Assembly: GCA_024137785.1 (NCBI GenBank)
Contig: JAHRHZ010000085.1
Coordinates: 2,108,279 to 2,172,278, forward strand
DNA: 64,000 nucleotides
Source of the DNA: Ginglymostoma cirratum
Taxonomy: Eukaryota
Direction of reading: 5' to 3'
The notes below the pieces were generated by a model that worked only from the letters and a program-made list of their open reading frames with translations, searched no databases and was not told where the DNA came from. Shown here piece by piece: positions 7,609-60,813 of this stretch (positions are counted from its first letter, which is position 1; each line of letters begins with the position of its first letter). The position numbers were made by a program, and so were the translations under genes.

Positions 7609-10600
7609 GTATTTTCTGGGAAAAAAAATCAATTTTTAAAATCGTCTTAATATTTATTCATGTTAGACTGTATCACTTTACCTTTTAGGAGTTTTCAAGT
7701 CAGATCTCAATGTTGAATTAATGGAATGCATTATTTTTCTCTCTCTTTTTCTTTGAAAGCTTTTTGCTATTCCCATATCCAGGTGTCACAGAAGCCTCAA
7801 CGCATTATTCGGAATTTCAGTGAAAATGTAACCATCACTTGTGCTTTCAGTATTCCGTCTGATGATTCAGACGTGGGTGTCTTCTGGTGGAAACTTGGCG
7901 ATAATGCATTTCTGCATCCTATCTCCGACGCTAGGAAACGGTATTTTAAGAGAAAGGGCCAGGGCACCTTAATGCTCATTGACATCCGTCTTAATGATGC
8001 TGGAGTTTATTTCTGCGGAGTTAATCAAAACAGTGCAACGATTAGCAACGGGACTGGAACGACACTTGTTGTCTACAGTAAGTGTCATTGTAGGTGAAGG
8101 AATTGTTAGAAATCTCGATACATTGTTTAACCGCTTAATAGTATTGAATGACATTGTAGAATGCTGTTGAAAACAAAAAAATAATGCTGGAAATCACACC
8201 GGGTCAGGCAGCATCCATGAAGAGAGAGCAAACTAAGGTTTCAAGTCGAGATGACGCTTCATCAGGGCATTCATTGCAGTATGTTGTCATGTTTGCATCA
8301 TTGCAATGCCAAACAGGGCAGGAAGATTAGTAAAATCTCGAAAAAAAATCATTCAACAGGAATTATGTATATCCGATCGAGTTAACGTGATTAGAACATA
8401 GAACATAGAACATTACAGCGCAGTACAGGCCCTTCGGCCCTCGATGTTCCGCCGACCTGTGAAACCAATCTGAAGCCCATCTAACCTACACTATTACATT
8501 ATCATCCATATGTTTATCCAACGACCATTTAAATGCCCTTAAAGTTGGCGAGTCTAATACTGCTGCAGGCAAGGCATTCCATGCCCTTACTACTCTGAGT
8601 AAAGAATCTACCTCTGACATCTGTCCTATATCTATCACCCCTCAATTTAAAGCTATGTCCCCTCGTGCTAGCCATCACCATCCGAGGAAAAAGGCTCTCA
8701 CAGTCCACCCTATCTAACCCTCTGATCATCTTGTATATCTCTATTAAGTCACCTCTTAACCTTCTTCTCTCTAACGAAAGCAGCCTCAAGTCCCTCAGCC
8801 TTTCCTCATAAGACCTTCCCTCCATACCAGGCAACATCCTGGTAAATCTCCTTTGCACCCTTTCCAATGCTTCCACATCCTTCTTATAATGCGGTGACCA
8901 GAACTGTAAGCAATACTCCAAGTGCGGCCGCACCCGAGTTTTGTACAGCTGCAACATGAGCTTAACGCGAAATGATTGCGAAATTGTCGTGTTTCGTCGA
9001 TATTGTCAATGCAAAATGCTGAAAGCCTGAAATCTTGAGAATGGAGTGTATGGAAACAATGTATAGAAACAATGATTTTCTGAAGAAGGGTCTCGACCCG
9101 AAACGTCACCTTTCCGGCTCCTCTGATGCTGCTTGGCCTGCTGTGTTCATCCAGCTCTACACCTTGTTATCTTGGAAACAATGTTTTTTTTAATCTAACA
9201 GAACCATTATTGTGGGACGTGCTCCATTCTATTACAGATCCTAATGAATCAAATCATCCAATTCTTTAACATTGACCTCATAACAAAATGAGCTGAAATG
9301 ATTTAACCACGTTAGAGTGAAGTCGATTAGGCTGCCAGCAAATTTATATATTGTTTTACTGGTGGAAATTCGAGGAAGAGACCTGTTCCAGCGTGCTCTG
9401 AATGATCGCCGATTATACAGTGAATATATTCCCAAAAGAATATAATTTCCTGTTCATAATGTTATCTTCAGCTGAGCTGGTGATGCATTTTTCTCCCAAT
9501 GATTAAGCGGGAAGTTCATGAGTATTAGTTGATAAGGCCAAGCAGCCAAACATCTTAGGGCACTGGAATAAAACGACACAAACGGGCATTCATGGTTGTT
9601 TCTTCTCGTGTTTAGACCAAATTGTAAGCAAATATTTTATCAACAAGCACGGAATTTCCCAGAACAATTTATATCCACGATTCATACGGCATTCCGTTAT
9701 TCTAGAAATTGATGGAGTTGTCAGGTTATTTTGGCATTTGCAGTTAGACTTGTGCATCTGAGGTCAGATACCACCTAATGTTTGCTTTTGTCTAGTGAAT
9801 TAATCCCATACATTGAAAGAATAGATACCCACAATGCAGAAAGAGGTGATTTGCCCGATCGAGTCTGCACCGACCCTCCGAAGTTCATCTTACCCAGACC
9901 CACTTTATCCCTGTGATTCCTGTAGTGTACTAAGAGCTCGATATAGCTTCACGTTGATCAAGCGTATTTGCATGACTGTTCCACTTAAGCAGCACATCCC
10001 TGTGTGCTACGGGGAAATCTAGTATGGCTAATCCGCCTAACCTGCACACTGTGGGAGGAAATCGGGGCACCAGAAGGTAACCCACGCAGACATGGAGAGA
10101 ATGTGCAAGCTCCACACAGACAGTGGCCAGAGGCTAGAATCGAACTCGCGTCCCCGGCACTGTGAACCAGCGATACTAACCACCAGCCGCCCCAATTAAA
10201 TAGCACTACAATGAATTGCGCAAAATTTTTGCGCTAATCAAATAAATGGCTCAACACAGAGTCACTCTTGTGTAACTCTTATTTTCCAAATTAATAAAAC
10301 AATACTCAGCATTATTCATTGGTTATGAGATATAATGATGTTCTAAATCGACAGCGCTGAACGATGTTATCTTAATCCCTTTACAGATCCACCATCTACC
10401 CCCACGATACTTTCTAAAACACCTGATGGAAATTCAGACATCTATTTACATCTCGTATGTGAAACAGTTGACTTTTACCCAGCGGCGATTACATTCAACT
10501 GGTACAAAAATACAAGCAAGATTGTCACCGGGATAAAGACAACACAGTACTTGACCGATGCGGGGCTATATCGAGCTTTCAGTACTCTACAGGAATCACA

Positions 10601-13600
10601 GCCAATCCAGAAAGGCACCTCTTATATTTGTTTGGTTTCTCACAGCGCCACCCAAAGTTCGAAATTGTCTGTTCATTTGGTGTCAAGTTCTACCTCAGGT
10701 AGGGAGCCAACGAATGAATTTGTATATAATTAACAACGCTATTACTGAAACTGCACAGAAATAAAACGATAGCTCAAAACTTTTATTGACATAGAAATTG
10801 AATGCTAAATATTGAGACAAGAAAAACTGGAGATGCTAGAATCCAAAGTAGACAAACAAGAGGCTGGAAGAACACAGCAAGCCAGGCAGCATCTGGAGGA
10901 AGATGGAAGCCAACGTTTCGGATATTACTCTTCTTGAAGAAGGGTAGTACCTGAAAGTTGACTAACTATTGAGGTTCTGAACCTGCACATGCAAACTGAG
11001 TATATAGAAACATAGAACAGTACAACACAAGAACAGGCCATTCAGATGACCACGTCTGTGCAGGTAATGATGTACCTCACCTAGGGCTGAAGATGATGCA
11101 AAGATCTCTGTCAAGCCCAACAATCTCCCCCCTCGCCTTCCTCAGTATCCTGGAATAGATCCCATCAGGCGCTGGGAACTTATCTACCTTAATGTTTTTC
11201 AAGGCATCGAACACCTCCTTCTTTTAATATTGACATGCCATAGGATATCAACACACCTCTCTCTAATCTTACCATTTTCCATGTCCTTCTCCTTGATGAA
11301 TACCAATGCAGAGTACTCATTAAAGACCTTACCCACTTTCTCTGGCTCCACGCATAAATTCCTTCCTTTATCCTGCTGTGCACCTATCCTTTCCCTGGCT
11401 ACCCTATTTGCTCTAAAATGGATATAAAATGCCTTGGAATTTTCTTGTCAAGGCCATTTCAAGATCCCCTCTGGCCCTCCTAATTTCTTGTTTTAATACT
11501 TTCCTGCTTCCATAATATTCCTTAAGGGCCTTTTCTGATTTCAGGGTCCAACACCTTACATATGTTTTCTTTTTCTTTTCGACTAGACTTTCATTATCTC
11601 TGGTCATCCAGGATTCCCAAACTTTGCCATCCTATCTTTCTCCCTGATAGGATCTTGCTGGTCCTGAATTCTGATCAACTGACCTTTAAATGGCTCCCAT
11701 ATGTCAGAAATGGATTTACCTTCAAACAGCAGCCTCCAATCTAATTTCTCAACTTCCTGCCCAATACTATTGCAATTAGCCTCCTCCAATTTAGCACTTT
11801 CACCTGAGGACCAGCTTTATCCTTATCCATAAAAATCTTAAAATTCATGGAATCATGATCACTGTTCCCAAGTTGCTCCCCACTGAAACTATAAACAAGC
11901 TGGCTTGGCTCTTGCCAATACAAGCTCCCTTACCTAGTTGGACTAGCGATATATTGTTTCATGAAGTCCCTCGCAGATTCACATAAAAATTTCTGCCCAA
12001 TCTAAGTCCTTGGCAGTAAGGGAGTCCCAGCCAATATTAGGGAAGTCAAAATCAACCACAACAATTATGCTGTCATTCTAACATCCTTCCATGATTTGCT
12101 TACATATATGTTCATCTATCTCTTGTTGACTGTTGGGAAGCCTATAGTGTGACCCCATCATACTGATTGCAACTTTTTTATTCCTGAGTTCTGTACATAT
12201 GGACTGTCTGGATGAGCCCTCAAATACACCCCCTCTTAGTGTGACATTCTATCTTACCTTAAACATCTAGACCCTGGAACAGTGAGTTGCTAATACTGCC
12301 CTTCTCTCAGCCAAGTTTCTGTAGTGGCTGTAATGGCTATGATATGTAGTCCCATGCAATAATTCAGGCTCTAAGATCATCAACCTTACCTGTTATGCAC
12401 TTAATCCTGCAAGTTTTGCTGACCAACCTGGTCCTGCCTGTTCTTCCTATTAGACTTACTTGACTTAACTTCGACCTTCTTCTCAATCACTCAATTTGCT
12501 GGCCTACTGTTCTACTTTCCACACCTTGCCTCACCAGTTCTCGAGTGGTATTAGCAAACCAAACAAAGATATTGGTGCCCCTCTAATTTGGGTGCAAGTC
12601 ATCATTCTTGTACAGGTCCCTCCTTCCCCGGAAGAGATCCCAATGATCCAGACATCTGAAGACATCCCTCTGACACCAGATCTTTAGCCATGCATTCAAC
12701 TGTGTTATCTTCCTATTTATGGCCTCGCCAGTCAGTGGCACAGGGAGTCATCCTGAGCTTACAGTCTGAGAGGTCCTGCATCTCACTTTCCTACCTGAAT
12801 CCCAAAATTCCCTTTGTAGGACCTCACCCCTCTTGCTGCCTATGGCATGCATTCCAGTATGGACAATGATTTCTGGCTGCTCACCCTCCTCTTTCAAAAT
12901 ATCCTGCACACACTGAGAGATATCCTTGACCCTGGCCTGGGAAGGCAACATGCCAACCTGGAGTCTTGCTTGCAGCCACAGAAATATCTCTGTGTTCCTG
13001 ACTACACATTACCATCATTACTATTTGCTGAAACTTTGATCTTCCCTGCGGTTCATGAGATTCAATCGTGGTGCCACTGATCTGGCTGCTGCTATTACTT
13101 TCCCTGAGAGGTCATATCCCAACTTCTAACAATATCAAAAATGTTATACTTGTTTGAGTGGGGACTAGCCACAGGGTACTCTTTCATTGCCTGCCTGCCT
13201 GCCCGCCCTTCTGCACTCATCTGGCTAAATATTTGGTGTGACCACATCCCTGAAATGCCAGTCTATATAAAAGCAGGACATTGCTGCCTGTGGCAATCTG
13301 TGCCTTTGGACACTGTATGATAACCATGTTTGTACACTTTGCAGGTCGTGACCGTAATCATTGACGGGTATTCAATAGGAATTTAAGGCAAAGAGACTTT
13401 ACTCATAAACCAAATTCGTGTGTGAACTCGTCGGCACAGGAAGTGTCTCAGTGAAATAGAGAAGTGTTTAAAACCAAAAGAAACATTTAAAAGATATGTC
13501 CTGATAAGTTGAGATATGATACTTTAAATGGAGCATGTAGCACATTCATCAGCAAGAGCAGATAGGCTAATTCCACTACAGTGAAATGAATTGAAAGAAA

Positions 13601-16600
13601 AATTGGACTTTCCCGTTCCAATATCATTTTAGGTGTGAATTTCTTCCAAACAAGCTTTGAAGCTTGAATTTGAATGTTAAAATTGTAGAATTATATTCCT
13701 TTAGTTTTTCATTTATATTGCTGAAAACGAAAATAAGCTGTCAAAGCTTTCCACCTTCCATTCATTTGGGCCCATGAAATAATACCAAATTTCAATATGA
13801 CCAAAAGAAACAGTACACATGAGAATTGAATAATAGAAAAATTGTTTGAAGAGAATTGAATAATAGAAACATAGAAATTGTTGGAAAAGCTCAGCAGATC
13901 TGGCAGCATCTATGGAGAGAAATCAGAAGTAACGTTTCAGGTCCAGTTCTGAGGAAGGGTCACTCGACCCCAAACGTTAGTTCTGAATTCTCTCCACAGG
14001 TTCTGCCAGTCCTGCTGAGCTTTTCCAGCAATTTTTATTTTTGTCTCTGATTTACAGCATCTGCAGTTCTTTCCATTTTTACATGAGGACGGATGCTGAT
14101 TGTTTAACAAGTCAATGTTAATTTGGCAGTCCTGTATTTCTACTGATGAGTTGAACATGAAAAGCTTTGACAGCATGTCTTTCTTTCCCATCTCTGAGCA
14201 TTATCTTTCACTCTGTCTTTCTCACTGAATATTGGATGGAATATTACCTACTTTCCTGGACGAGCACAACTGCAACAACATTTAAGAAGCTTAACACCAT
14301 CCAGAACAAAGCAACCGCTTGACTGACATCACATCCACAAACATTCAGTCACTCTCCTACCGAAGCTCGGTAGCATTGATGCATACAATTTGCAAGATAC
14401 ATTGCAGAAATTTATTTAATGTCCTTAGACAGCGCCTTCCAAACCCACACCACTTCCATCTTGAAGGATAAGGGCAGGAGTTAAATAGACGCACCACAAC
14501 CTTCTAGCTTCCGTCCAAGCCACTCACCATCCAGACTTGGAAATATATCACTGCTTCTTCACTGCTACCGGGTCAAACTCCTTGAATTCCATCTCTAAGG
14601 AGTTACTTACAGAACACGGACTGCAGCAGTTCAACAAGGCAGCTCACCACCACCATCTCAACGGCAACTGGGGCCAGGCAATATGATGCCCACATCTCAT
14701 GCATGAATAAAATCACAACTCGGCTCGGTCAAGTAGACTGCTTGGCCTGTAATCTGTGGGAAATCAGACACCATGCTCTTGTCCCAGATAACATGTTTTT
14801 CCTACAATACATACTTCAGTTACTCTATTTATAATTTTTTCAACTTGCATAACTACTTTCGATAACTCATTTCTAGCTATTCATATTTCTGTTATTAATT
14901 CCACGTCTTCATCAATTTCTGAGAAAGTAACTTCCTTGTAACTTCCCGAGAATAACCTTGAGACTTTTCTACCTGTATTAATTTTAGACCCCGCGCAATG
15001 TCCTCAGATTTGTGTTGTCAATTTCTGCTTCCAGTAGGTACCAGTCCGTCTAACACACGATACATTGCTATTGAAGTAGTGTACGCTTTAAGGTTCACGA
15101 CCAATCCAAGCCCTAGAACCTCCTCCATTTTGAAAACACATTTCCTATTATTTTAAAAGATTACGCCCGCGAAAAGCCTGCAATGTATCGTCGTGTGATA
15201 GGAATGAGCAATTTCATGTCAAGATTGCCTTCTGTCAGGGTAAATGATTTGACGGGCGATATCCAACAGGACAGTTTAAAATTAACAGAACAAAACATCA
15301 ATACATCAATTCAAAGGAACAAGGCATGACACAAAAAAAGCACGAAGGAAAGATTTTATCGCTTCGATTTGTCTTGGGATATATTTTTAATTTCACTCCA
15401 GTTTTCATGCGCTGCAGTCTAATTGGTATTGCTAACTTTACAGTTTTCATGCATACACGAAGTTAGTAAATTGTTGATAATTATTGATTTGTCGTAAGTT
15501 CTATCTCAAAAATCTTCCCAGCTACATTCATTAATCTTACAGGCATTGGCATTAATTCTGACATTTTGGCGATTGGGTGCGCAGTCAGCGGATTCGTCTG
15601 TCTCGTGCTGGGGGCCGTCATTGGAAAGCGATGCAAGTCACGTTCGTGCAAAGGTAAAGAGCTCTGTGTTTACTTAGTTTTAAGGTTTTCGATCAGTTAA
15701 AAAGGAAATGTTATTGTCAGTGGCTCCTAACTCGAATCTAAAAAAAATCTTTCTCATCTTAATCGGGACTCGATCATTGGATGACACACTACTAACATGA
15801 ATGAATACTTTAAAATGTCCTTTTAATGTTATCACCAATTTCCTGTTTATACTGAAGTATGGGTACAATTCGGAATCCAAAATTATGAGCAGCTAGTGAT
15901 TCTAATGAATAATGTTTACGTATAATTATGAACCAAGACGATATGCCTCATAGAAGTTGAACGTATCGGTGCCTCTCATTTGGACTGTAAAAAGAAAGTA
16001 AAGTCTTGCAATTTCTATTCCCAATGCATAGGGACAAATCAAGATGCACCTCGACCATGCGAAGAAACGGTACGTCCATATATGTAACACCCTTTTAAGA
16101 GCATGTTAATTATTTTGCATTATGGAAACAAACTGTAATTTTCTCGTGTGTCCATCTTCTTTCTGTTGTAGCCATAAGAATTAGAGGTGGGGAGAAAAGA
16201 CATTGACACTAATCTCCATTGTCAGTAGGTTCATTGAATACTAGAGTAAAAGCAATGTGATGCAAGACATCTCAATTAAGTCAGAAAGTGTTGGAGAAAC
16301 TCAGCAAGTATGGCAGCACTGGTGGATAGAGAAACAAGGTTAGCCAAAGACAATATGACTCTTTATGAGATAACAAGCATGGGGCTGGATGAACACAGCA
16401 GGTCAAGCAGCATCATAGGAACAGGAAAACTTGACGTTTCGGGCCTAAACCTTTTATCTCTGATACAATNNNNNNNNNNNNNNNNNNNNNNNNNNNNNNN
16501 NNNNNNNNNNNNNNNNNNNNNNNNNNNNNNNNNNNNNNNNNNNNNNNNNNNNNNNNNNNNNNNNNNNNNNNNNNNNNNNNNNNNNNNNNNNNNNNNNNNN

Positions 16601-19600
16601 NNNNNNNNNNNNNNNNNNNNNNNNNNNNNNNNNNNNNNNNNNNNNNNNNNNNNNNNNNNNNNNNNNNNNNNNNNNNNNNNNNNNNNNNNNNNNNNNNNNN
16701 NNNNNNNNNNNNNNNNNNNNNNNNNNNNNNNNNNNNNNNNNNNNNNNNNNNNNNNNNNNNNNNNNNNNNNNNNNNNNNNNNNNNNNNNNNNNNNNNNNNN
16801 NNNNNNNNNNNNNNNNNNNNNNNNNNNNNNNNNNNNNNNNNNNNNNNNNNNNNNNNNNNNNNNNNNNNNTGCTGAGTTTCTCCTGTACTTTCTGGCTGTA
16901 TATCATCAAATTCGGGAATTATTTTGACCAAACATTATGAGAATTCATGTTCTAAATATGTGTAAAATAGCTAAGACTAAGCAACACACATGAACATCAG
17001 CATGACTGAAATTGTGGAAAGCCCTTTATAATCATTATGGCCCATCACTTAACGAAAAGTACAAGACTGTAATTTTAAGATTGCATTCAAGATCTTACTT
17101 CACTTCCAGACACCTTTCAGGTAACTCGATTAATAGTGTAGTTTTGGCATGCAATTGAAATCGAGCAGATGTAGTATTTTATTGGGCATACTGCTATTCG
17201 CTTTAACTGGAAATTTAATGCCATGCATATCACCTGGTGCAGATATAGCATGGCAAGTGACAACATTTAAAACTTTTTGAAAAGATTTGCAGCTTGGGTT
17301 CTGGATAAGGTTGTAGACATGCTCGCCGAGCCAGTAGGTTTGTTTGCAAATGTGTCGTCACACTGGTAAGTAACAGCGCCAGTATGCCTCCGGTGAAGCA
17401 TCGATGTTCTGTCCCACTTGTTATTTACATGCCTCAGTTTGCTGGGGTGATTGGTATTCCCTCCATGACTGTTTCTCAGTGGTTTATACGCACGGACTAA
17501 TTCAATGTGTTTGTTGATGGAGACTGACAATACGGATACATGAACACCAACTAGCCACCAATAGACATGACAAATTCTCACTTGTCTCACCACAACATGG
17601 ACAATGAGAGGCACGAATTTGACTGGGACAACACATCCATAATCGCACAAGCCAAACAGAGCCGTGCCAGGGAATTCCCGGATGCCTGGTATTCCAACCC
17701 GAACTCCATCAACATTCAATTAGACCCTGCGTACAAACCGCTGAGAAACAGAACCAGAAGTATTACAAACCAGCCCAGCAAACCGAGACATATAAATAAC
17801 CAATGGGACAGAACATCGATGCTTCACCGGAGGCATACTGGCGATGTTACATAGCAGGGTGATGAAATGTATGCTACCAAACCTACCGGCTCGGCGACCA
17901 TGTCCACAACCTCTACATTAAAAATCTCAGATTGAAGCAGTCTATATCCAACACCAAGTGCTGTCAAACAAATTAAAATAAAACTTTCAGCTAGGTGACA
18001 GAGAAAGGAAGGAAGTCGTGTGTTTGAGAATGGGGAGACAATCACCTCGTGTTATTGTTGCTGGACTGGACTTTTAAGCCAGAGGCCCAGATAATGTTCT
18101 GGAGACCCAGTTTTGAATCCTGCCATTGCAGATGGTGGAATTTGAATTCATTTTTTTTTAAATCTGGAAGTAAGAGTCTGATGATTATTATGAATGCATT
18201 GATGAGTGTCAGGAAATAAAAACAAACATTTGGTTCACTAATGTCCGATAGGGAAGGAAACTGCCATCCTTACTTAGCCTGGCCTACATGTGACTTTCAA
18301 CCTACAGTTGACTCCTAAATGCCCTCTGGGCAAACTGGGGATGGGCAATAAATGCTGGCTTAACCAGCAATGCCCTCATCCCATGAATGAATTTTAAAAA
18401 TAAAACGGATAGAGGGAGAGAAAGCAAAAACGGAGGTCAGAAGGATGGTTGGAACAATCCCAACCGATTAGTAAACTGTGTGCAAAGTTTCAGCAGTGAT
18501 GTCAATTTTTGTTCTCTGTCAGCAAAGAACAGCTTTGAGTACTCATTTTAGTGATACTTAGTTTACAGATATTTCATCATGCTTGTCAATATTCTGGCAT
18601 ATATTTCTCTAAGGAGGTACTTCCAGAGCATTTGCAGATTTGTGGGCTGGTCAAATAATGAAACAATTCATGAAATCAGATTTCAGTATTATCAGCTGTA
18701 TCAGTTGATAGCACACCATGAAGTAAAACACAGGCCTACAAATTTGCACTGAAACAATGTGGATTAACTGAAGTAAACATGAAGAAATATATGAAGGGAA
18801 AAAAATAACAGCTTACAGAGACAAACAGGCAAGGTAAAACATTGACAATATTGATGATAATATTCATAAATGAATCCATCTGCAACATTAATGTTATTTA
18901 GAGAAAAGAAGAATTTTTATGCATACAACCTTTCATTTAGTGTCAGCATCGCTGCAAGGTAAGCATTTTCTGTCCGTCTAAGTTGTCCTTGAATAGGTGG
19001 TGGTGAACCATATTCTTGTTATGCTGCATACAGTGGTACTTAGGTACAGGGAGACTGCACTTTTGAAGGGAGTTTGAGGATTCTGACTCAGTGATATACA
19101 GGGATGTACAAGGATTTCACGTTGACATAAGGAGGGAAGATGTGTTGGGTAGGCTAAAGGATATTAAGGTGGACAATTCCCCAGGACCGGATGGGATCTA
19201 TCCCAGGATGCTGAGGGAGGCAAGAGAGGAAATAGCTGGGGCCCTGACAGATATCTTTGCAGCATCCTTAAACACAGGTGAAGTGCCGGAGGACTGGAGA
19301 GTTGCTAATGTTGTCCCCCTGTACAAGAAGGGTAGTAGGGATATTCCAGGTAACTATAGACCAGTAAGCCTGACGTCAGTGGTGGGAAAGTTGCTGGAGA
19401 AGGTACTGAGGGATAGAATCTATTTATATTTGGAAAAGAATGGGCTTATCAGTGATAGGCAACATGGTTTTGTGCAGGGGAGATCATGCCTTACTAACTT
19501 AATAGAGTTCTTTGAGGACGTGACCAAGTTGATAGATGAAGGAAGGGCTGTAGATGTCATCTACATGGACTTTAGTAAGGCGTTTGATAAGGTTCCCCAT

Positions 19601-22600
19601 CGTAAACTAATGGAGAAAGTGAAGTCACATGGTGTGCAGGGTGTTCTAGCTCGGTGGATAAAGAACTGGTTGAGCAACAGGAGACAGAGAGTATTAGTTG
19701 AAGGGAGTTTCTTGAAATGGAGAAAGGTGACCAATGGTGTTCCACAGGGATCAGTGCTGGGGCCACTGTTGTTTGTGATATACATAAATGATCTGGAAGA
19801 GGGCATAAGTGGTCTGATCAGTAAGTTTGCAGATGACACAAAGATTGGGGGAGTAGCAGAAAGCATAGGGGATTGTCAAAGAATACAGGAGAATATAGAT
19901 AGACTGGAGAGTTGGGCGGAGAAGTGGCAGATGGAGTTCAATCTGGGCAAGTGTGAGGTGATGCATTTTGGGATGTCTAATTCTAGAGCAAACTATACTG
20001 TAAACGGAAGGAAAAGTTGATGAGCAGAGAGATCTGGGAGTTCAGGTCCATTGTACCCTGAAGGTGGCTGCACAGGTGGATAGAGTGGTCAAGAAGGCAT
20101 GTGGTATGCTTGCCTTCATCGGATGGGGTATTGAGTATAAGAGCTGGCAGGTCATGTTAAAATTGTACAAGACTTTGGTTCGGCCGCATTTAGAATACTG
20201 TGTACAGTTCTGGTCGCCACATTACCAAAAGGATGTGGAAGCTTTGGAGAGGGTACAGAGAAGGTTTACGAGGATGTTGCCTGGTATGGAAGGTGCTAGC
20301 TATGAAGAGAGGTTGAGTAGGTTAGGATTGTTTTCATTCGAAAAAAGGAGATTGAGGGGGGACCTGATTGAGGTCTTCAAAATCATGAAGGGTGTAGACA
20401 GGGTTGATAGAGATAAGCTTTTTCCCAGGGTGAGGGATTCAATAACGAGGGGTCACGCGTTCAAGGTGAGAGGAGAAAAGTTTAAGGGGGATACACGCGG
20501 AAAGTACTTTACACAGAGGGTGGTAGGTGCCTGGAACGCGTTGCCAGCAGAGGTAGCAGAGGCAGGCATGGTAGATTCATTTAAGGTGCGTCTGGACAGA
20601 TGCATGAGTAGGTGGGGAGCAGAGGGATACAGATCCTTAGGAATTGGGCAATAGGTTTAGACAGTTGATTTGGATCAGTGCTGGCTTGGAGGGCCGAAGG
20701 GCCTGTTCCTGGGCTGTAAGTTTTCTTTGTTCTTTGTTCTTTGTTCTTTGATATAGTTCTAATTCAGACTCCAGTGCAGATAGTGTTGCAAACATTCACA
20801 TATTGCTTTTATCTTTCAAGATAGTAGGAGTCATTGGGGGAGGTGATGGCCTCCCATCAAACTATTATCGCTAGACTGTTAATCCAGATAACATTCAGCA
20901 GACCTGGGTTTGAATCCCACCATGGCAAAAGGTGGAATTGGAATTCAATAAATATCTGGAATTAAGAGTCTAAAGATGACCTTTAGGGAAGGAAACCGCC
21001 ATCCTTGCCTGGTCTGGCCTACATATGACTCCAGACCCACAGCAATGTGGTTGAGTCTTAACTACCCTCTTGGCAATTAAGGTTGGGCAGTAAATGCTGC
21101 CTAGCCAGCAAAACCCTCATCCTATGAATGAATGAATAAATGAACAAGATACCTCCATGAGTTGCAACAGTGCTTTTTCAGATGGTATATTGGTAGTGGT
21201 GAGATTGAAGATTTACGGTGGTGTATTGGTTGAAAATCATGCAGGCTGCTTCAGAATGTATGGAGCTTTGTGTGTACTAGAGCTGTACCTACCCATGGCG
21301 CAGTGAGTATCATCAAGGTCTCAATCTGTGATTTTTATGTAGCAGGCAGGTTTGGGGAAGTGTAAAGTAAGTGGTTCAATACTGGCCAATTACCAGCTCA
21401 GGCTTGAATATTATCCAGTATGGACATGGACTGTTTCAGTAAATAAGCATCATGACTGGTCAAGAGCTCTGTGCATTCAGCCAGAACATTCCACCTCCTA
21501 GACTTATTGTGGAGTTAAGGTCATTATTGAAGAAGCTCAAAATGATTCCACCCATGACTCTAATCTTAGCAACTGATGCAGTGATGGCCTGAGACTAAGG
21601 TGACTGCTGTCCAACAACCACAGCCATCTTTGCTTGTGTTAGACATAATTAGCAGACAGTGCATTCCCTCACTTCTATTGACTTAGTTTTAGCAGACGTC
21701 AAACACAGTTAAATGTTACTTTGATGTAAAGTGCAGTCATTCTCACCTCAGCTCCTCAGCTTGCCTCATTTGCCCATCCACGAAGGCTTTAATGAGATCA
21801 GTGGCTGAGTTGCTCTGGCAGTACTGGGTAATCGTGACAGCTGTTTTGACTGTGTGAGCGTTGTTTTATAACACTTTATAACGCTGGACTCATTCTGGAG
21901 ATCAGTCTGACAGACAGTTTATCAGCCAGGTTAAATTTGTCCTGCCTTCTGTTGACACGATGTAAGTGGAATATTTTTCAGGGGGATGCCAGTATTTTAC
22001 CTGTACTGAAACAACTGACTGATTGTGCAACCAACGTGGGAGCCCCTTTTTCTCATTGTATTAACCAAAATTTTGTATTGCATCGGCTCAAAAACGCAGC
22101 TCACCTGAAAGGCAACCAAGGGTGGGGAAAAGTACTGATTCAGTGATTGGTGCTCACATCTCATGAGTGAATGTATTTTTTAAAATGTCAGGGCACATAG
22201 CCTTTGAGTAAATCAAGAGCCAACAATGGTCTTATCAGGCTTAAACAATTTCAGTCTCTGGGTCTCTAGGTTCGGTCTCTGGAATTAGGTGCCACCTTCT
22301 CCTGTTTCTTCATCTTGTCTCACAGAAAGACTGTTCAGTCCACAAAAAGTTTTGTCAATAAGTTGGAGTTATGTGACTGCAGACATCAGTAATAAATTAA
22401 GACAGCTGTTATCACCCTCAGTCAGTGTTGTGAGAATCAGGAAACAATGAATATCATACAAGTTAGACCAAGGAGACATAAGTGGGAATGCATAATATAC
22501 GTGGACAAAGATACCCAAAACCATAAAACTGAGTAGTGGGCAGGGAGCAAAATGACTCAAAATATATTAAGGCTGAGTTGAGAATCAGTGGATAGAAGAT

Positions 22601-23515
22601 GAAATGACTGACTATAGGTTCTCAGATAGCGTGAGATTTTCGTGTATAAAAGAAAGAAAGAACAGGGCATCAATATAACACCTACTCACAGTTAGGAAAT
22701 AGTGATTGATATATCCACTGCCATTCTGCAGCGTCATGTAGGAAGGTTTTGGTTGCACAAAATTAATAAATATGTTTTGATCACGAATGGAAGTCATATT
22801 TAACAATTTATTGTCCAAGGTTTTGTAAGCTCCCCATGGAAGGTAATGGTTTAACTTAAAAGACAAAAAAAAACTTAATGGAATAAAAACACAATGAGAC
22901 ATAACCTGCTTTAACCTTGTGTGCAAGGACGCGACTCTAAGCCAGCAATCCCTAAGTTTAATAAAAACAAATCTGAGTAAAAAAAGCACATGACTGTTGA
23001 AATACTGACAATAACAGATTCTCTTTTGTTTCTGGCTCTGGATATACCTGAATTTATGTATTAAGCATTAACTAAATGATAAATCTACCCTCATGCGCCA
23101 ATAATGTAGGCTGCATTTTAGGACTCATCAAGTACTTCGTTCTAAAAGATTTCATGTTGTTTGGTGCAATTATAAACTGTAATAATGTTCTACTTTCAAC
23201 ATAAATATCACATTAGTTAAATTCGTTCCAGTTACATTTAGACCGGCATCATATTATGATCAATAGCTTGCAACCAAAATCTTTAACTTTTACATTTAAT
23301 GATCTGAAAGCTAATATGAAATATTGTTGGACTTAAAGCATTCTGAATCGTTACAGACACTGGAAGTAACCGAAGATAGCAACCTGGGTTATGCAGCTCT
23401 CAATATGTTTAGTTCGGAGAAAAGATGGACGCACAGACAACAGGAAAATTGTACACATTACGCTGCAATTAAGACAGGCATGGATGCTGTGCGCGATTCG
23501 TCCGCTGAAATTTAG
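7563..23515 (+). CDS. Six-exon inhibitory IgSF receptor: leader-VJ-C1-TM-ITIM/ITSM (NCR3/SIRP/VJC1-like, non-rearranging). join(7563..7608,7760..8077,10387..10698,15543..15653,16032..16069,23357..23515), 327 aa
   Basis: Manual splice reconstruction: all introns are GT-AG, phases are 1,1,1,1,0, and exon lengths sum to 984 nt = 327 codons + TAG with no internal stop. Domain motifs are recognisable in the V, C1, TM and tail exons. Confidence 0.88.
7760..8077 (+). CDS. Exon 2, V-set Ig domain with germline-encoded J-like G strand
   Basis: AFCYSHIQVSQKP...NVTITC...VFWWK...LIDIRLNDAGVYFCGV...SNGTGTTLVVY contains the B-strand Cys, C-strand Trp, DxGxYxC and GxGTxLxV. Acceptor TTTGAAAG, donor GTAAGT. 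Confidence 0.95.
8393..8960 (-). mobile_element. Young CR1 LINE 3' end in intron 2
   Basis: Open 142-aa frame [41 protein letters not shown] and a (TTCTATG)n tail. Confidence 0.92.
9076..9172 (+). mobile_element. Short Penelope terminal-repeat insertion with hammerhead core (9080-9107)
   Basis: CTGAAGA-AGGGTCTCGACCC-GAAACGTC; TGGAAACAATGT is repeated on both sides. Confidence 0.75.
9815..10195 (-). mobile_element. tRNA-derived SINE (HE1/V-SINE-like)
   Basis: On the minus strand: A-box/B-box-like head (GTGGTTAG...GTTCGATTC) followed by the TGTGTGGAGCTTGCACATTCTC core. Related copies lie at 49455-49785 (-) and 52025-52810 (+). Confidence 0.8.
10387..10698 (+). CDS. Exon 3, C1-set Ig domain
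   Basis: NPPSTPTIL...LHLVCETVDFYPAAITFNWYKN...GLYRAFSTL...SYICLVSHSA carries the LxC, FYP, W and YxCxVxH C1 signature. Acceptor TTTACAG, donor CAG|GTAGGG; 312 nt, phase 1-1. Confidence 0.93.
11005..13250 (-). mobile_element. Decayed CR1 LINE (ORF1 esterase-like and ORF2 endonuclease region, plus 3' tail)
   Basis: EGEQPEIIVHTG...EVLQREF (ORF1 SGNH-like), LGNSDHDSMNFKI...LNWRR (endonuclease), and a CTATGTTTCTAT tail near 11005. Confidence 0.8.
13872..14078. mobile_element. Palindromic terminal-repeat derivative of a second Penelope-like family
   Basis: Inverted arms (GGAAAAGCTCAGCAG... / ...CTGCTGAGCTTTTCC) flank CTGAGGAAGGGTCACTCGACCCCAAACGTT. Relatives lie at 24100-24230 and 35772-35905. 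Confidence 0.7.
14225..14715 (+). mobile_element. 3' end of a second LINE family (CR1/L2 group)
   Basis: Homologous to 51400-51895; ends in ...GCCCACATCTCATGCATGAATAAA. Confidence 0.7.
15543..15653 (+). CDS. Exon 4, transmembrane exon GIGINSDILAIGCAVSGFVCLVLGAVIGKRCKSRSCK
   Basis: Acceptor CTTACAG, donor AAG|GTAAAG; 111 nt, phase 1-1. About 21 uncharged residues are followed by a basic stop-transfer sequence. Confidence 0.9.
16032..16069 (+). CDS. Exon 5, short cytoplasmic linker GTNQDAPRPCEET
   Basis: Acceptor CATAG, donor ACG|GTACGT. It converts phase 1 to phase 0, which is exactly what is needed to join exon 4 to exon 6. Confidence 0.78.
16470..16870. other. Assembly gap (401 N) in intron 5
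   Basis: Run of N directly after a young Penelope terminal repeat (16369-16452, - strand). Confidence 0.99.
17309..17911. mobile_element. Penelope-like fragment with ~210-bp inverted repeats
   Basis: Arms 17309-17522 and 17704-17911 are reverse complements. The centre encodes the GIY-YIG C-terminal-like peptide HEFDWDNTSIIAQAKQSRAREFPDAWYS...IN. Confidence 0.8.
18032..18400 (+). mobile_element. tRNA-derived SINE with Deu-like core (SacSINE1-like)
   Basis: B-box-like GTTTTGAATCC, GGAAGGAAACTGCCATCCTTAC core and a LINE-type tail ending in ATGAATGAA. Other copies lie at 20836-21140 and 57040-57240. Confidence 0.7.
19091..20750 (+). mobile_element. Young 5'-truncated CR1 LINE with near-intact reverse transcriptase, in intron 5
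   Basis: 309-aa and 196-aa frames (SPGPDGIYP, YRPVSLTS, DFSKAFDKV, GVPQGSVLGP, FADD) separated by one frameshift at ~20010; (TTCTTTG)n tail. Confidence 0.95.
20836..21140 (+). mobile_element. tRNA-derived Deu-like SINE
   Basis: Same head, core and tail as 18032-18400. Confidence 0.75.
21150..22180. mobile_element. Decayed LINE (second family) fragments, mostly - strand
   Basis: Similar to 53310-54535 and to the reverse complement of 50600-51895. Confidence 0.55.
23357..23515 (+). CDS. Exon 6, cytoplasmic tail with ITIM (LGYAAL) and ITSM (THYAAI)
   Basis: Acceptor TTACAG, phase 0; TLEVTEDSNLGYAALNMFSSEKRWTHRQQENCTHYAAIKTGMDAVRDSSAEI*. Confidence 0.88.
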   Translation, partial: TLEVTEDSNLGYAALNMFSSEKRWTHRQQENCTHYAAIKTGMDAVRDSSAEI

Positions 23516-24239
23516 TAGTCAAATGATCTGCGATCCCACCGGCAGTATGTGAATTCTTGTAGAATCCTGAAGTGTATTCTTGTTAATACTGATACTAGAT
23601 TCATGGACTGAATAATGTGAAACAAGGACCATGGTTTTCCTTTTTTCCGATCTGTTAGACGATGTAATAATGATAATTTTCTTGATTCATTTATAATGTA
23701 CTATTACTTGAACTTGCATTATGTGTGTTTCTGCATCACTCAACCAAAGCAATGTAACAAGTATTTTGAAGAACTGATATTTTAAGGGCTCATGCTGTAT
23801 ATTTGGGTGCAGTATGATCACGTCATTCCATTCAAAGTGTGTTTCTTTTGTTCAGCATACTTCTTTTGTTGTATTTGCTTACATTAACATAGCTCACATA
23901 TTGTCAGTCTCTTCGTTTGAAGTAGGACTACCTGGAAATTTAATTTTTGCTCTTTTTGATATATGAACCATAACATCATAAACAATATACTCCACATTGG
24001 TTTTCAATACGTCAGCATATATGCCAGGAAGAATTGAGGAATTGAAGATATTTAAATATAAAAATACCACACAAGGCCACAAAACAGAGGGATCAGGGTT
24101 CTGAGGAAGGGTCACCGGACCCAAAACGTTAATTCTGTGTTCTCCTCCACAGATGCTGCCATACCTGCTGAGCTTTTCCAGCAGCTTTGTTATTGTTCCT
24201 GATTTACAGCATCCGCAGTTCTTTTGGTTTTTCTTAAGC

Positions 24240-38025: not shown

Positions 38026-39513
38026 ATGCAGATACTTAATTTTGTTATTATTAATTTTGTGTTTTTTTTGCACGTTAAGTATTCACAGAGCTCATTTGCC
38101 ACGGCATTAGAGGGAAGAAAATACGACATGCAATGAGGACAACAGTTTAAAAATTGGAGTGTTAGTCAATTAGGCATGGGAAATTGCTGTTGCATCAATG
38201 ACTTAGAATGATGGTGCTATTTGGATGGGTGCAGACTGTCCTTCTTGTTTATCTCAGTGTGTTTCCTTAGTTGATAGTTGCTGTGGGCATTTAGGCCAAA
38301 GTGAAACAAGATCTTAGATGAATAACAAAATAGACAGGTTCATCAGTCTCATGTAATGTCCTTTTTTCTTCAAAACTGACCATTTAAACGTTGTCACTTA
38401 CTGGTGGAGTGAAGCAATCATGCAGGAGGATAACAGAAAGTTATTCACTGTCGTTAGAGGAACAGGCTACCTTAATCTTCTGAATGTGACTGCCGGGGAC
38501 GCTGGAACATACAACTGTATAGTCACATATCAGCATTGAACGTTTGGGAAAGAAACTGTTGTGCAACTTACTGTATATGGTGTCACCACAGATAAACATG
38601 GTGTCTGAGCTGCATTTCATCTGGACATTTAACTTCTTTAGAATGAAATTATCAACAGTGTGAGAAAATTGTAAGGACTGCCACACTATAAAGATTACCA
38701 TTGGCACTTCATAAGAAAATTGTATTGAAATGTATCTATTGCAAGTTAATACCAAACTTTGATCCTACCCAGTATTCCTTTCTACTCTAAGCATTGGGAA
38801 GCAATTTGAAAAGTTACATATATTATCTGCAGTATTATAGATTTTGAATATCTAGCATCTAATAAAAAATAAAATTCCTGCTCCCCCTTGTTTGGACTGT
38901 GGCTGTCGCAGTTTCTATGATCTAGAATCCAGTTCCAAACCGCTTGTTAAGAAAGATGCTGAATGATATTCTAAATATATTTGTAATAATTAATATGTAT
39001 ACAAGTTAGAAACCAATCTTGCTGAACTTGGAAATGGTGCATCAATCGCTTTTGGGGGTGGGGGAATTTGCAATATCTTAAACATAACAATTACTTCAAG
39101 CAAATAATGACTACTAAGGCAAAAACTGCGCCCTGAAATTACAGATGGCTTGTTAATTAAATAATTGAAGCTTTGGAGTAGGAATCTGATGATTCAATTT
39201 TTCTGAATTATATTATTTACAATGCAGCTTCACTAACTCCACTGAAAATTGTGCCACATACATTGGAAGAAGGTTCTTTCATTCTGCAGTGTAGGACTTC
39301 TGCCAATTTCCCAAAAGACTTTTATCTTACTTCATACAAAAATGATACAAAAGTCTTGAACGGACTTAGAAATGAACAAACACCACAGACTTTATGAGGT
39401 TGTCAGCACCTTAGAGTCAGAGGCAGTTGAATGCTACAGTTTACACTTGTCAAGTGCAACATTTCAAGCTCATTTCGAGCAAATGTCAGTTACATTATTG
39501 CAGAACGTGACTC
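38026..39513 (+). pseudogene. Pseudogene paralogue of the VJ-C1 receptor (leader 38026-38074, VJ 38278-38579, C1 39228-~39513)
   Basis: Leader MQILNFVIINFVFFLH with a decayed donor (G|TTAAGT). V: AVGI*AKVKQDLR*ITK*TGSSVS/CPFFFK...TYWWSE...NRKLFTVVRGTGYLNLLNVTAGDAGTYNCIVTYQH*TFGKETVVQLTVY. C1: SLTPLKIV...FILQCRTSANFPKDFYLTSYKNDTKV.../LYEVVSTLE/TVYTCQVQH. Multiple stops and frameshifts; no TM or tail exon found. Confidence 0.88.
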
Positions 39514-56375: not shown

Positions 56376-57890
56376 ATACTAACCTTTCTAGTTTGCAAGG
56401 AATGCATGAGAAAGGAAAGACCATGAGTGCATAGAATCTATTCAGCCCATAGACATGTTTTGTAACTTGTTTTAGAAAAGCGATTGTCATGGTAAAAATA
56501 AATAGTTTAATGTCAATTAAGAACTTCAGATATAGAATAAAACAAAAGTCAGTTACTTGCACAACATCATTAACTTAAGCTCACTCTAAACGTCATACAT
56601 GTGTGAATACCATAGGGAAAGTGTTGGATAGAATGTGCAATAAGTTGAGTGGAGACATATACCTGCTTTAGTTGCCCTAATAATATAAAGCTTGACATTT
56701 AGGGATTTTTTCGCACTGAAACAACCAACAGAACATTTCTCAAATTATGACTTACACTCGTATGAAACTGAAGTAACTGCAGGAGTGCAGAAATGTGAAT
56801 GAAAATGAAGATTATAGACATTAAACGATCTTGACTTGTCAAGGTGTTTGTTTCTGAGATGCTGCAAGTGGCTTTGCAGGGAGGTGTTTTGTTGAAAAGT
56901 ATTGGCAGCCAAACAAGTAGGTTATCAAGTTTGAAACATTGGTATGGACATGGGATGGATAGAGCACTACTATTTGTAAGCTGAACTTTAAGAGTCATGT
57001 TCAAGTAGAAAATATTGACAATTAATGACTTTTGTAATAATATATTGGGATCATTAATACCCATTACAGAAGGAAATGTGTGATCCTTACTAGCCTCGCC
57101 CTCCATGTCACTCAAGATCCAATGTCATGTGGTTGACTCTTCATGGTTGCCTAAAAAACTCCTCACAAATTAGAATGCAATTAGGAGTGGGCAAAAATGC
57201 TGGCCCAGCCAGTGATATGCACATCCTGTGAGCAAATTATAACAAAGTATTCTAGCCAGTTATCACTTGGGTCTATTTAGCTTCACAAAAGTAAAAAGAA
57301 AGGCATTCACACTTTTGTAGACCATGGCTGGAGTGGAATGGTATAGACAGGACTGATAAATCAGAATGATTACTTAAATGATAGTGGATCAAACAACCAA
57401 TTCAAACAATAAAAACAAAAAAAATGAACAAAATAAGAAGAACATAACAATGAAAAACTTGCTGGCACAGTAAGAACCATCCTACACTGAAAGAAACAAC
57501 AAAAAGAAATGAAAATATCAGTATCTTTCGTGATGTAACTAACGGTGAAATGGTGAGAAAAATCTGATGGTCTCGGACTTTTTTGAAAGCTATTAGAAAA
57601 CAATGATACTTACTTGTTTTGCGAAACATAGTGGAGAGTTCAATAGAATGATGAGTTTAAAGTCTAGAATGAAGCCAGTTGCTGTCTCAAGTGATACACG
57701 TCAAGCAAGTTTAGAGGCAAAACAGAGTTGGTTCATGAGTCATTAAAGGAAGACAAAAAGTCACCGACTATTTTTTGAAAGAATTGAAAGAACACATTTT
57801 TGCTTCAAATTTCAGAAAAAACCAAGGATTTTCCAATATTATCCAGAAACCAAATGATTGTAATTAAGAAAATAATTACTGTATTCAAAT

Positions 57891-60813
57891 TTATGAACAG
57901 AAATGTACCTCTGCAAATATTGTTCTTTCATCCTGGGTCCTGGGAATTTTTGCATCATTTGAGTGCGTCATTTCAAGATCAGCATTTGTTAATGTATCTT
58001 CAGCCGTCTCTTAGTCAAGGGTTAACATTCATTAATTTACATTTTCTGGAGTCAAGAATCAATGTTTCATATAATCAATGACTATTATTTTGTCTCCTTG
58101 AGTTTGCTAGCACTCTGTTACATTCTTAATTGTTGGAAGCTTCTGTTTCCAATTTCCTTCTCGCCACGAGACAAAAATGAAGGCTGACTCATTATCTGAT
58201 GGAACCGTGTTCACAAACTATGAAACTTTATGGGTATGTTAAAATTTAGAAGAGGAACACTGCAAAATTCATTTTCCTGAGCACAAAATGATCGATTAAT
58301 TCAACATTAATAATTTTCAACATTCGTACAGAAATTATTCAAGATTACATCCTTTTACAAATAGCTGATGCTGTGTACTTTTTGCTCTAGATCTAGATGG
58401 ATTTGATCTGAATTTCCTTTACAAAGATAAATAAAGTCACTTAAATGCATGTCTCTTCATTTGGAAATAAAAGTACAATTCAAACTATGTGTAATGACTA
58501 AACCTCTACTCCATTGTTGGTTGTCTGGTGCATTAATTGGTTAGTAACTGACATCTGCCATACTTTTGCCTAATGCTGAAATTAATAAGTGAATTATACT
58601 CATAGAAGCAATTGTTTATCGGTAAGTTCAATAGTAATGAAATAATTAGATCTCAGTAATTGTTTCAATTGCACCATCTGAATGTTAATAAATGGGGCGG
58701 TGAAGATTTTTAGTGAAGCAGCTCACGCAATCCAATTCCATTGAATTTTTAAAGTACACAAGATGTCATACAGTATTTTTCAGAAAATTGTATATTTCAA
58801 TCTGAGGATTTTTTGTTAAGATAGAAACAAGAGACAACAGATTAATTAGGAGCCTGGAAACAGAGAGAGCAATGAAATAATTTAACAGTTACCCAATGAT
58901 GTTCCTTCAAATCAGTGAACAAAATATAAAATATCAATTTTGTTTTAAATACATATGCTTTCAGACATTTTATGCAATATTGCTTTATCACAGGGAATAC
59001 GTTATTCTCTTCAGATCTGCATGTCTGCACTTGAGTCATTGAAATATCGGTGAAATTTCAGAACCTGACAAGACCAGGGGAAATGAAGGGAAGCATTCGC
59101 AAAGCTTAGAATTATTTTAAAGAAGACAAATTCAAGGGCAAGGTGTGGAGCTGGATGATCACAGCAGGCCAAGCAGCATCATAGGAGCAGGAAAGCTTGA
59201 CATTTCGGGCCTAGACCTTTCATCAGAAAATGATTTTCTGATGAAGGGTCTGGGCCCGAAACGTCAAGCTTTCCTGCTCCTATGATGCTGCTTGGCCTGC
59301 TGTATTCATTCACCTCCACACCTTGTTATCGCGGATACTCCAGCATCTGCAGTACTTATGATCTCAAATTCAAGGGCAGTCTACTCACTGTATATAACAC
59401 TGAGAAAAAGGTATATGATTAAAAACAAATAAATAGAGATGAATGGCTATTGTATAATTGACTTTACAAACACATCATGGCAGGATGATCGGGAGAAATC
59501 ATTACTCAATAATATTCAATGACATTTTGGATGGACAAAGGAAAAGAAGACATATTAATATTACATTCATAGTAATGGATGGGATCTGCTCTCAGTCAAG
59601 AAGGATCACAGATCGGAATAAAAAAGTCAGGAAATTTCTATGCTGCAGCTAAGCAACAGCAAGCAGGGGGAAACATTAGTCATTGCTTATAAGCCACAAA
59701 CACTGGTAGTAAAGCGAGGCATAGACTAAATGTGAAAAAAGGTTATTGAAGTATAGCACATAGCTTTTGCAATAATCATGGCTAGATTCAATCTTGATAT
59801 AGGCATGGCAAATTAATGAGCACTAAAGCTGTGAAGAATGAGTTTCAGACTGTGTTAGGGATACTTTTCTAGAGCAGTTATGTTAAGGAACAGACTAGAG
59901 AACTGTGTCCATCTGCCAAAATGTGACAAAAAATAATCCATTCCTGATGATGTTATAAGGGAACCTAGAAGCATGAATAACCATACAATGATGAAATTAC
60001 TCATGACAAGTTTCATACTTATCAGTGTTTGTAATACTTCCAATAATTTCCTTCTTGATGTTTGTTTCATATTAAAGGCTAAGTCGTACTTTTTGTCATG
60101 AAAATAAAACCTTTTAACTTCAGCCAAATAGTTTAAACAAGATTATTTTGATTGAAAAGTCTGAGTCATTCAGATGAATCTCAAAGCAAATGGCAAAAGG
60201 CCTTACCGCATCTGTGTGTTGAGTAGGATTTCTTGTTTTTTCCTTTGAACCTGGTGACAATAAATATGGCATGAATTGTCAAGAGAGGTGTAATGCTTGC
60301 ATTCATCACTAAGCCAACAAAATTCAACGCACTTCACACAGACACAAGGTATAATAGACTAATTGGATTGAGAATGTAAATCAAAATGTTGAACGTATGA
60401 ACACATATTTAGTTATGTCTTGAAGCTGTGGAAATATTTCTTCATCATTGAAATTCATCAGATTACTTTCAGATCTGAAAAGATCGGATTTAGCATTCTA
60501 AAGCTATGAACATTAACATGTAATGCTCGTGCCGAAGTGACACAAATGCTTGCAAGTAGTTTCACATCATATATTTATTTTAACTGGATGTGTCAGATTT
60601 CATTACCCAATTATGTGAATTCAATTCAGATAGTTTAATCAATACTTGTATGGAAGTTATTTCATTTAGTATGTATATTCCTATTCATACATTTAGATAT
60701 AATGAATAGAAGACACTTCACAATCATCACTATCAAATGGTGCTTGTCATAATAGAATTGCAAGTGCCCTGGACATCCAGCAACAACAGCAACATTGATT
60801 TTAGAGGCAAAAT
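57891..60813 (-). pseudogene. 3' half of a third paralogue (TM exon 60813-60691, linker exon 60250-60207, tail exon ~58009-57891), probably degenerate
   Basis: Minus strand. TAG|ATTTT..: FASKINVAVVAGC...LIVMIVKCLL..SK|GTATGA (123 nt, phase 1-1). CAG|GT-SKEKTRNPTQHTDA|GTAAGG (phase 1-0). Tail (E)TAEDTLTNADLEMTHSNDAKIPRTQDERTIFAEVHFCS* aligns with exon 6 of the intact gene. Exon order and phases match, and the TM-linker intron is similar in size (440 vs 378 bp). Confidence 0.78.
59141..59364. mobile_element. Back-to-back inverted Penelope terminal repeats (two hammerhead cores) with 14-bp TSD
   Basis: Near-perfect hairpin centred at ~59232; CAAATTCAAGGGCA at 59127-59140 and 59365-59378. Confidence 0.9.

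Follow-up and report, generated by a model that had tools for sequence, protein, structure and literature searches.

The locus and the broken gene

The window, meaning the whole stretch of 64,000 nucleotides that was analysed, corresponds to positions 2108279-2172278 of contig JAHRHZ010000085.1 (hereafter C85) in the 4.36 Gb genome of Ginglymostoma cirratum, and its closest database proteins are shark proteins. The feature of main concern is a damaged tail exon on the minus strand, the sixth exon of a seven-exon gene for a receptor with a V domain, a C1 domain and a membrane segment, the 5' part of which lies just outside the window (Table 1). The introns of this gene are kept, i.e. it is an unprocessed copy, and its model was built with an open paralog as guide. 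At least 14 copies of the exon region are found on C85, including the studied one, to which the 13 others are 73-81% identical in a DNA search. The studied copy is the most diverged of the 14, with 37/311 conserved positions changed (11.9%) against 9.7% in the runner-up.

The first-pass annotation had recognised in this exon two motifs, LTNADL and TIFAEV, each a single base away from a TAT tyrosine codon, and both changes are indeed present. At the second site the three copies without TAT, all broken, have a His-type codon, a frameshift or Cys. The 23-codon spacing of the two motifs is, as had been claimed, that of LGYAAL and THYAAI in the plus-strand gene of the window. As a standard of comparison, though, this gene shares the motif spacing but is not the closest relative, which is to be sought among the 73-81% copies outside the window; it gave no DNA match to the exon in a self-BLAST at E<1e-4, and in V and C1 it has 29-33% protein identity to the family of the broken gene. 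Pfam finds a V-set and a C1-set domain in the plus-strand gene, in agreement with the precomputed domains of the homologs, and a 400-base N gap inside it (16470-16869) could hide a further exon. To go by the remaining C1 matches in Table 1, the family is much larger than the part studied here.

Table 1. Features of the window and of related loci. Plain numbers are window positions; C84 and C85 denote contigs.
Feature	Position	Strand	Basis or remark
More distant V-C1-membrane gene	7717-23516	+	J-like GxGT motif; one tyrosine-pair exon found (starts 23357)
Second V-C1 pseudogene	38278-39506	+	stops and deletions; no membrane exon found
238-bp deletion breakpoint, exon 7 lost (acceptor, two further tyrosine motifs, stop)	57796..57797	-	paralog comparison
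Donor GT and start of intron 6; 'V-HFCS*' read-through	57891..57908	-	conserved GAG/GT donor, exon end 57909
Exon 6 remnant of broken gene (first tyrosine-pair exon)	57909..58007	-	paralog comparison; Stegostoma P0153/P0154 run into exon 7 here
Second tyrosine codon, TTT = Phe	57915..57917	-	TAT in 10/13 other close copies
ITIM tyrosine codon, AAT = Asn	57984..57986	-	TAT in 13/13 other close copies
Site of 13-bp deletion (real acceptor gone); leftover AAG out of frame, GAG in frame	58008..58013	-	paralog comparison
Exon 5, 44 bp, intact, AG/GT	60207..60250	-	open paralog as guide
Membrane exon, 4-bp deletion and 13-bp insertion	60691..60813	-	open paralog as guide
C1 exon, TAA stop, deletions of 1, 5 and 15 bp, donor GT>GG	C85:2174446-2174730 (just outside window)	-	open paralog as guide
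V exon, -3 and +4 indels, frameshift	C85:2175422-2175734 (just outside window)	-	open paralog as guide
Leader exon, intact	C85:2176049-2176103 (just outside window)	-	open paralog as guide
Three orphan damaged C1 exons	C85:2183070-2196173	-	just upstream of broken gene
Open four-tyrosine gene	C85:2215956-2231799	-	clearest candidate activating/inhibitory pair with next row
Open Arg-membrane gene	C85:2297798-2310268	-	ectodomain 95% identical to that of previous row
Shifted-frame tails	C85 2298070, 2510854, 2622128, 2921879, 3021024, 3533474, 3580534		shared 2-bp deletion
Further related C1 exon arrays	C84 6.7-7.5 Mb, 7-36 kb; C85 1.76-2.06, 9.6-9.86 Mb		84 C1 matches, 29-61% identity

Besides the two tyrosine codons the broken gene carries at least eight disabling lesions, and no N gap lies inside it. 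The two indels of the membrane exon together restore the frame, yet the centre of the helix turns polar. If the gene were spliced as it stands, reading would stop at codon 113 inside V, and with V skipped at codon 81 in C1; the only open products of exon skipping carry no Ig domain.

Splice sites and the missing exon

The start of exon 6 has been lost rather than worn down. In the paralogs the exon opens with a CAG acceptor followed by RKQE, and in the studied copy a 13-bp deletion has removed the real acceptor and the first two codons, which replaces the gradual acceptor decay that had been envisaged earlier. The two nearby AGs proposed as substitutes are present (58011-58010 and 58009-58008) and do yield both of the frames that had been named. 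Among 121 AG acceptors at exon copies of the cluster, 114 are CAG or TAG, five AAG and two GAG.

At the other end, the 'V-HFCS*' sequence that had been taken for the coding end of the tail is intron read-through, the exon having its 3' end at a conserved GAG|GT donor. With the exon end at 57909, the final valine of the ITSM is intronic. The canonical ITSM consensus ends in valine, and the naming of TIFAEV as a mutated ITSM holds in part: the change from Tyr to Phe is real, but in related sharks the spliced motif runs TIYAE-T, which is not a canonical ITSM. Reading through the donor of intron 6 in the close copies does give a canonical ITSM, with a stop at the same place in other copies, and an intron-retaining short isoform of these copies is possible. 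The related proteins of Stegostoma and Heterodontus extend beyond the second motif into a further tyrosine pair, and it was this extension that led to the search for, and discovery of, a seventh exon about 140 bp downstream of exon 6. Exon 7 lies, whole or in part, behind 13/13 of the other close copies.

The receptor cluster

The annotated part of the cluster comprises 2.17-3.11 Mb and 3.45-3.71 Mb of C85, with the interval 3.11-3.45 Mb and the relatives on C84 and elsewhere on C85 falling outside it. Three of the 14 close tail copies belong to genes with an open frame all the way from the leader to the stop codon (358, 356 and 336 amino acids, the last without a fourth motif), nine are broken, and two are cut by N gaps. 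The nine broken copies span 2.17-3.48 Mb of C85. An arginine is encoded by 9/28 membrane exons at a site where others have glycine. In seven tails, six behind an Arg exon and one behind an exon with Arg>His, exon 6 has lost 2 bp at its end, which shifts the frame of exon 7. Judged on sequence, this shared deletion would represent a conserved conversion from an inhibitory to an activating form, and since the Stegostoma protein P0157 ends in the same shifted frame the conversion would be old. Among the Arg genes, one has a completely open frame (321 amino acids) and keeps one ITIM-like motif, and a second is open through the membrane segment.

The four-tyrosine and arginine forms have closely similar ectodomains. 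Two Arg genes are 95% and 89% identical to two four-tyrosine genes over the ectodomain (amino acids), as against 68-77% in other comparisons, and the corresponding Gly/Arg pairs reach 95% in Stegostoma and 90% in Heterodontus. In the clearest pair the shared tract extends over 8 kb at 91% and is not limited to exons, with mis-assembly as an alternative account of it. In a tree of V domains Arg and Gly genes are joined three times with 100% support, whereas the Arg membrane exons group together (95% support), with a second subfamily; the discordance points to possible shuffling between ectodomains and tails. The paired-receptor setting assumed in the first-pass annotation is thus borne out at the level of sequence, by very similar ectodomains on four-tyrosine and on arginine tails, and it is likely that such a paired-receptor family exists. 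By analogy with established paired receptors (PMC5112662, PMC6360152), the living four-tyrosine relatives would recruit SHP-type phosphatases (SHP-1/2) and inhibit, and the membrane-arginine relatives would activate through association with an ITAM adaptor. In a process of birth and death, many dead copies would be left behind by repeated rounds of duplication and shuffling of exons.

Origin of the tyrosine changes

How, then, did a tail exon with an otherwise recognisable sequence come to lose both of its tyrosines? The gene is broken in V, in C1, in the membrane exon, at the acceptor of exon 6 and in exon 7, so that the exon belongs to a multiply broken receptor copy, and its two tyrosine changes most likely arose through neutral decay after the death of the gene. 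The frame- and splice-destroying lesions, with introns retained, are those of a pseudogene. Of the two readings offered in the first-pass annotation, pseudogene decay hence finds support; the signalling-dead decoy, as a state of the present gene, does not, since damage affects V and C1, two exons of the tail, and the membrane exon.

The rate of change is compatible with decay. In exon 6, 14/91 conserved positions are changed, compared with 23/220 in the flanking intron (Fisher P=0.25). When 11-15 changes were scattered over exon 6 in simulations both tyrosines were lost in 5-10% of cases, and under the non-coding rate in 3.7-5.5%, values that concern a copy picked for the trait itself. It had been suggested that a substitution density high enough to make two hits expected by chance, together with a lack of transcripts, would mark a plain pseudogene; the exon changes at about the intron rate, and the double hit exceeds chance only weakly (P of losing both 0.04-0.10). 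The probability that at least one of the nine broken copies loses both tyrosines is 0.15-0.22, two further copies, with 5' ends in N gaps, being set apart from this set. The three-point ratio of non-synonymous to synonymous change (N/S) is 0.60 for exon 6 and 0.67 for the whole broken gene, but as the open genes range from 0.61 to 0.79 it has little power, and N/S ratios did not separate dead from living genes.

A different order of events is rather unlikely, namely that inhibitory copies lost tail tyrosines while they were still expressed and decayed later, whether because selection favoured the loss, for instance as a way of evading a pathogen that engages the inhibitory receptor, or because a first hit made the copy dispensable. 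The studied copy would then be the extreme case, two of its tyrosines having been changed and two deleted, and it may have passed through a decoy stage. What favours this order is chiefly a pattern across the broken copies. When exons 6 and 7 of all nine are taken together, 10/33 tyrosine codons have changed compared with 31/346 other invariant codons (Fisher P=0.001), and in the studied copy alone 2/2 tyrosines compared with 2/15. The tyrosine changes are spread over 8/9 of the copies and involve five different replacements; those in the other broken copies are to His, Cys, Ser and Phe, and one other copy has lost two of its four tyrosines. Leaving out the studied copy there are eight changes, or seven if a His change common to two copies is one event. 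Within-copy comparison with mutation context predicts 2.9-3.6 (P 0.004-0.044), a test biased by its slow comparison sites, and non-coding rates predict 3.7-4.6 (P 0.026-0.17), a test that assumes death right after duplication. The excess is thus mild, post hoc and about twice the expectation. Further points on the same side are that other invariant codons in the broken copies have changed below the neutral rate (31 against 46 expected); that the N/S of C1 on the branch of the broken gene is 0.47, which suggests that function was kept for part of that branch; that the Heterodontus protein P0045 has Asn at the same motif while keeping its three other tyrosines; and that there is a precedent in independent ITIM losses of ape KIR3DL3 (PMC6360152).

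Against early loss of the tyrosines it has to be said that the test was devised after the data had been seen, that the copies are related and may exchange sequence, and that codons called invariant lean towards slow sites. With the studied copy out and the shared His counted once, P against non-coding rates is 0.07-0.17. Nor is there a substituted tyrosine in the three open-frame genes (A-type), at 0/11 codons; together with the two gap-truncated copies the count is 0/19, where neutrality predicts 1.8-2.2 (P 0.09-0.15). In one open gene the fourth motif was lost through a 34-bp deletion.

A wider and decidedly unlikely version of events would have sharks and rays possess an undescribed SIRP-like V-C1 paired family in which inhibitory copies were repeatedly disarmed at their tail tyrosines, probably by pathogen pressure, before they died, and in which activating partners arose anew when the same ectodomains were joined to an old arginine tail; the studied exon would then be the relic of a copy that had been disarmed completely. 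The weakest point of this version is the selective disarming. It is very improbable that a working version exists and that the lesions stem from mis-assembly or from a null allele on a single haplotype: the cluster is repetitive, with 20 N gaps in the examined part, two of them of 75-100 kb, but there are many lesions, most of them longer than one base (-238, -15, -13, -5, -4, +4, +13), and they are spread over five exons, the gene itself is free of N gaps, and in none of three trees does its long branch have a close sister. A living surface or secreted decoy that binds ligand and gives no signal is barely credible, for although the signalling motifs are absent (two tyrosines substituted, two deleted), the leader and exon 5 intact, the membrane indels compensating and an in-frame GAG acceptor at hand, the ligand-binding domain is not intact, the V frameshift and the C1 lesions (a stop and a lost donor) leaving no whole Ig domain in any open product, and GAG is rare as an acceptor (2/121 in the cluster).

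The exon by itself carries little weight, as dead copies are commonplace among clustered immune genes. Greater significance attaches to the cluster. With matched inhibitory and arginine V-C1 receptors in three or more sharks, SIRP-like paired signalling would date back to the oldest branch of jawed vertebrates, and the cluster would offer testable candidates for myeloid or NK-cell receptors of sharks. If, across species, the tyrosines proved to be lost before the genes died, the dead copies would preserve the traces of an arms race between host and pathogen.

Comparison with known receptor systems

With the SIRP receptors of mammals the shark family has in common a V domain with C1 after it, two pairs of tyrosines in the tail, and paired forms in one cluster; the top two clusters in the atlas ranking are SIRP-alpha. 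The tyrosine spacing is 23-14-23 in the shark family and 24-17-24 in rodent SIRP-alpha P0165. The SIRP ectodomain is V-C1-C1, and P0165 aligns through two C1 stretches, whereas the conceptual shark proteins and their database homologs have a single C1, at 24-28% identity. The activating member SIRP-beta-1 has a membrane Lys; in the shark family the charged residue is an Arg, placed close to the helix's outer end. Conserved neighbours of SIRP include NSFL1C and PDYN, and an exon-wise search, on unplaced contigs, found SEP-domain matches on C87 and C52 and an opioid-precursor match on C228, with none on C84 or C85. The shark family would work like a SIRP pair, but it is not filed as SIRP on account of the 24-28% identity, the one C1, the Arg and the slightly better PDB scores for B7-H6. 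B7-H6 (NCR3LG1) has the V-C1 ectodomain and gives the best short-receptor PDB matches (E 1.7e-10 against 4.4e-9 for SIRP-alpha), with scores that lie amid generic antibody V-C1 matches. To our knowledge B7-H6 does not combine a tail of four tyrosines with Arg partners.

KIR2DL4 is an Arg form that keeps one ITIM, and the open shark Arg gene with one ITIM-like motif resembles it. The same paired pattern is seen in the KIR, LILR, Siglec and CEACAM clusters, but with other types of Ig domain, and no homology is claimed. Paired receptors are described as near-identical ectodomains on opposite tails, with recombination and many pseudogenes (PMC5112662), and the non-rearranging VJ-C1 genes (UrIg, PRARP, NKp30) as having an unsplit V exon followed by C1 (PMC10751288). 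The unsplit V exon with C1 is common to these genes and the shark family, and the J-like GxGT motif with which the V exon of VJ-C1 genes ends is clear in the plus-strand gene of the window but eroded in the subfamily of the broken gene. VJC1 genes were reportedly the subject of Ohta et al. 2019.

Within the result listings and abstract openings of a full-text literature search, no description of the V-C1 receptor cluster was found. It may already be covered by Ohta et al. 2019, Flajnik et al. 2012, or Ohta and Flajnik 2015.

Related shark proteins

The member proteins are already public under automatic names. The database relatives from sharks and rays are called SIRP-alpha-like, SIRP-beta-1-like, B7-H6-like or uncharacterized, names assigned automatically by similarity; examples are P0153, P0154 and P0157 of Stegostoma and P0042, P0045 and P0152 of Heterodontus. 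One V exon used as query in a word-based protein search gave no match among 91 candidates, and a full HMMER search gave four close single-domain matches among the 150 listed, the rest being long multi-Ig proteins. The shark and ray proteins have the same V-C1-membrane layout, the same tail exons, and both Gly and Arg membrane forms. Stegostoma P0154, for instance, is 82-85% identical to one C85 copy across V, C1 and exons 6 and 7, as compared with 55-71% to the studied broken copy. The lineage of the broken gene is likely older than the separation from Stegostoma, and orthologues of it may exist. The Asn for Tyr at the first motif of Heterodontus P0045 is likely independent of the change in the studied copy. 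Finally, in Hemiscyllium P0155 an Arg membrane segment is followed by a second V-C1-membrane unit, which probably represents two adjacent genes fused by annotation.
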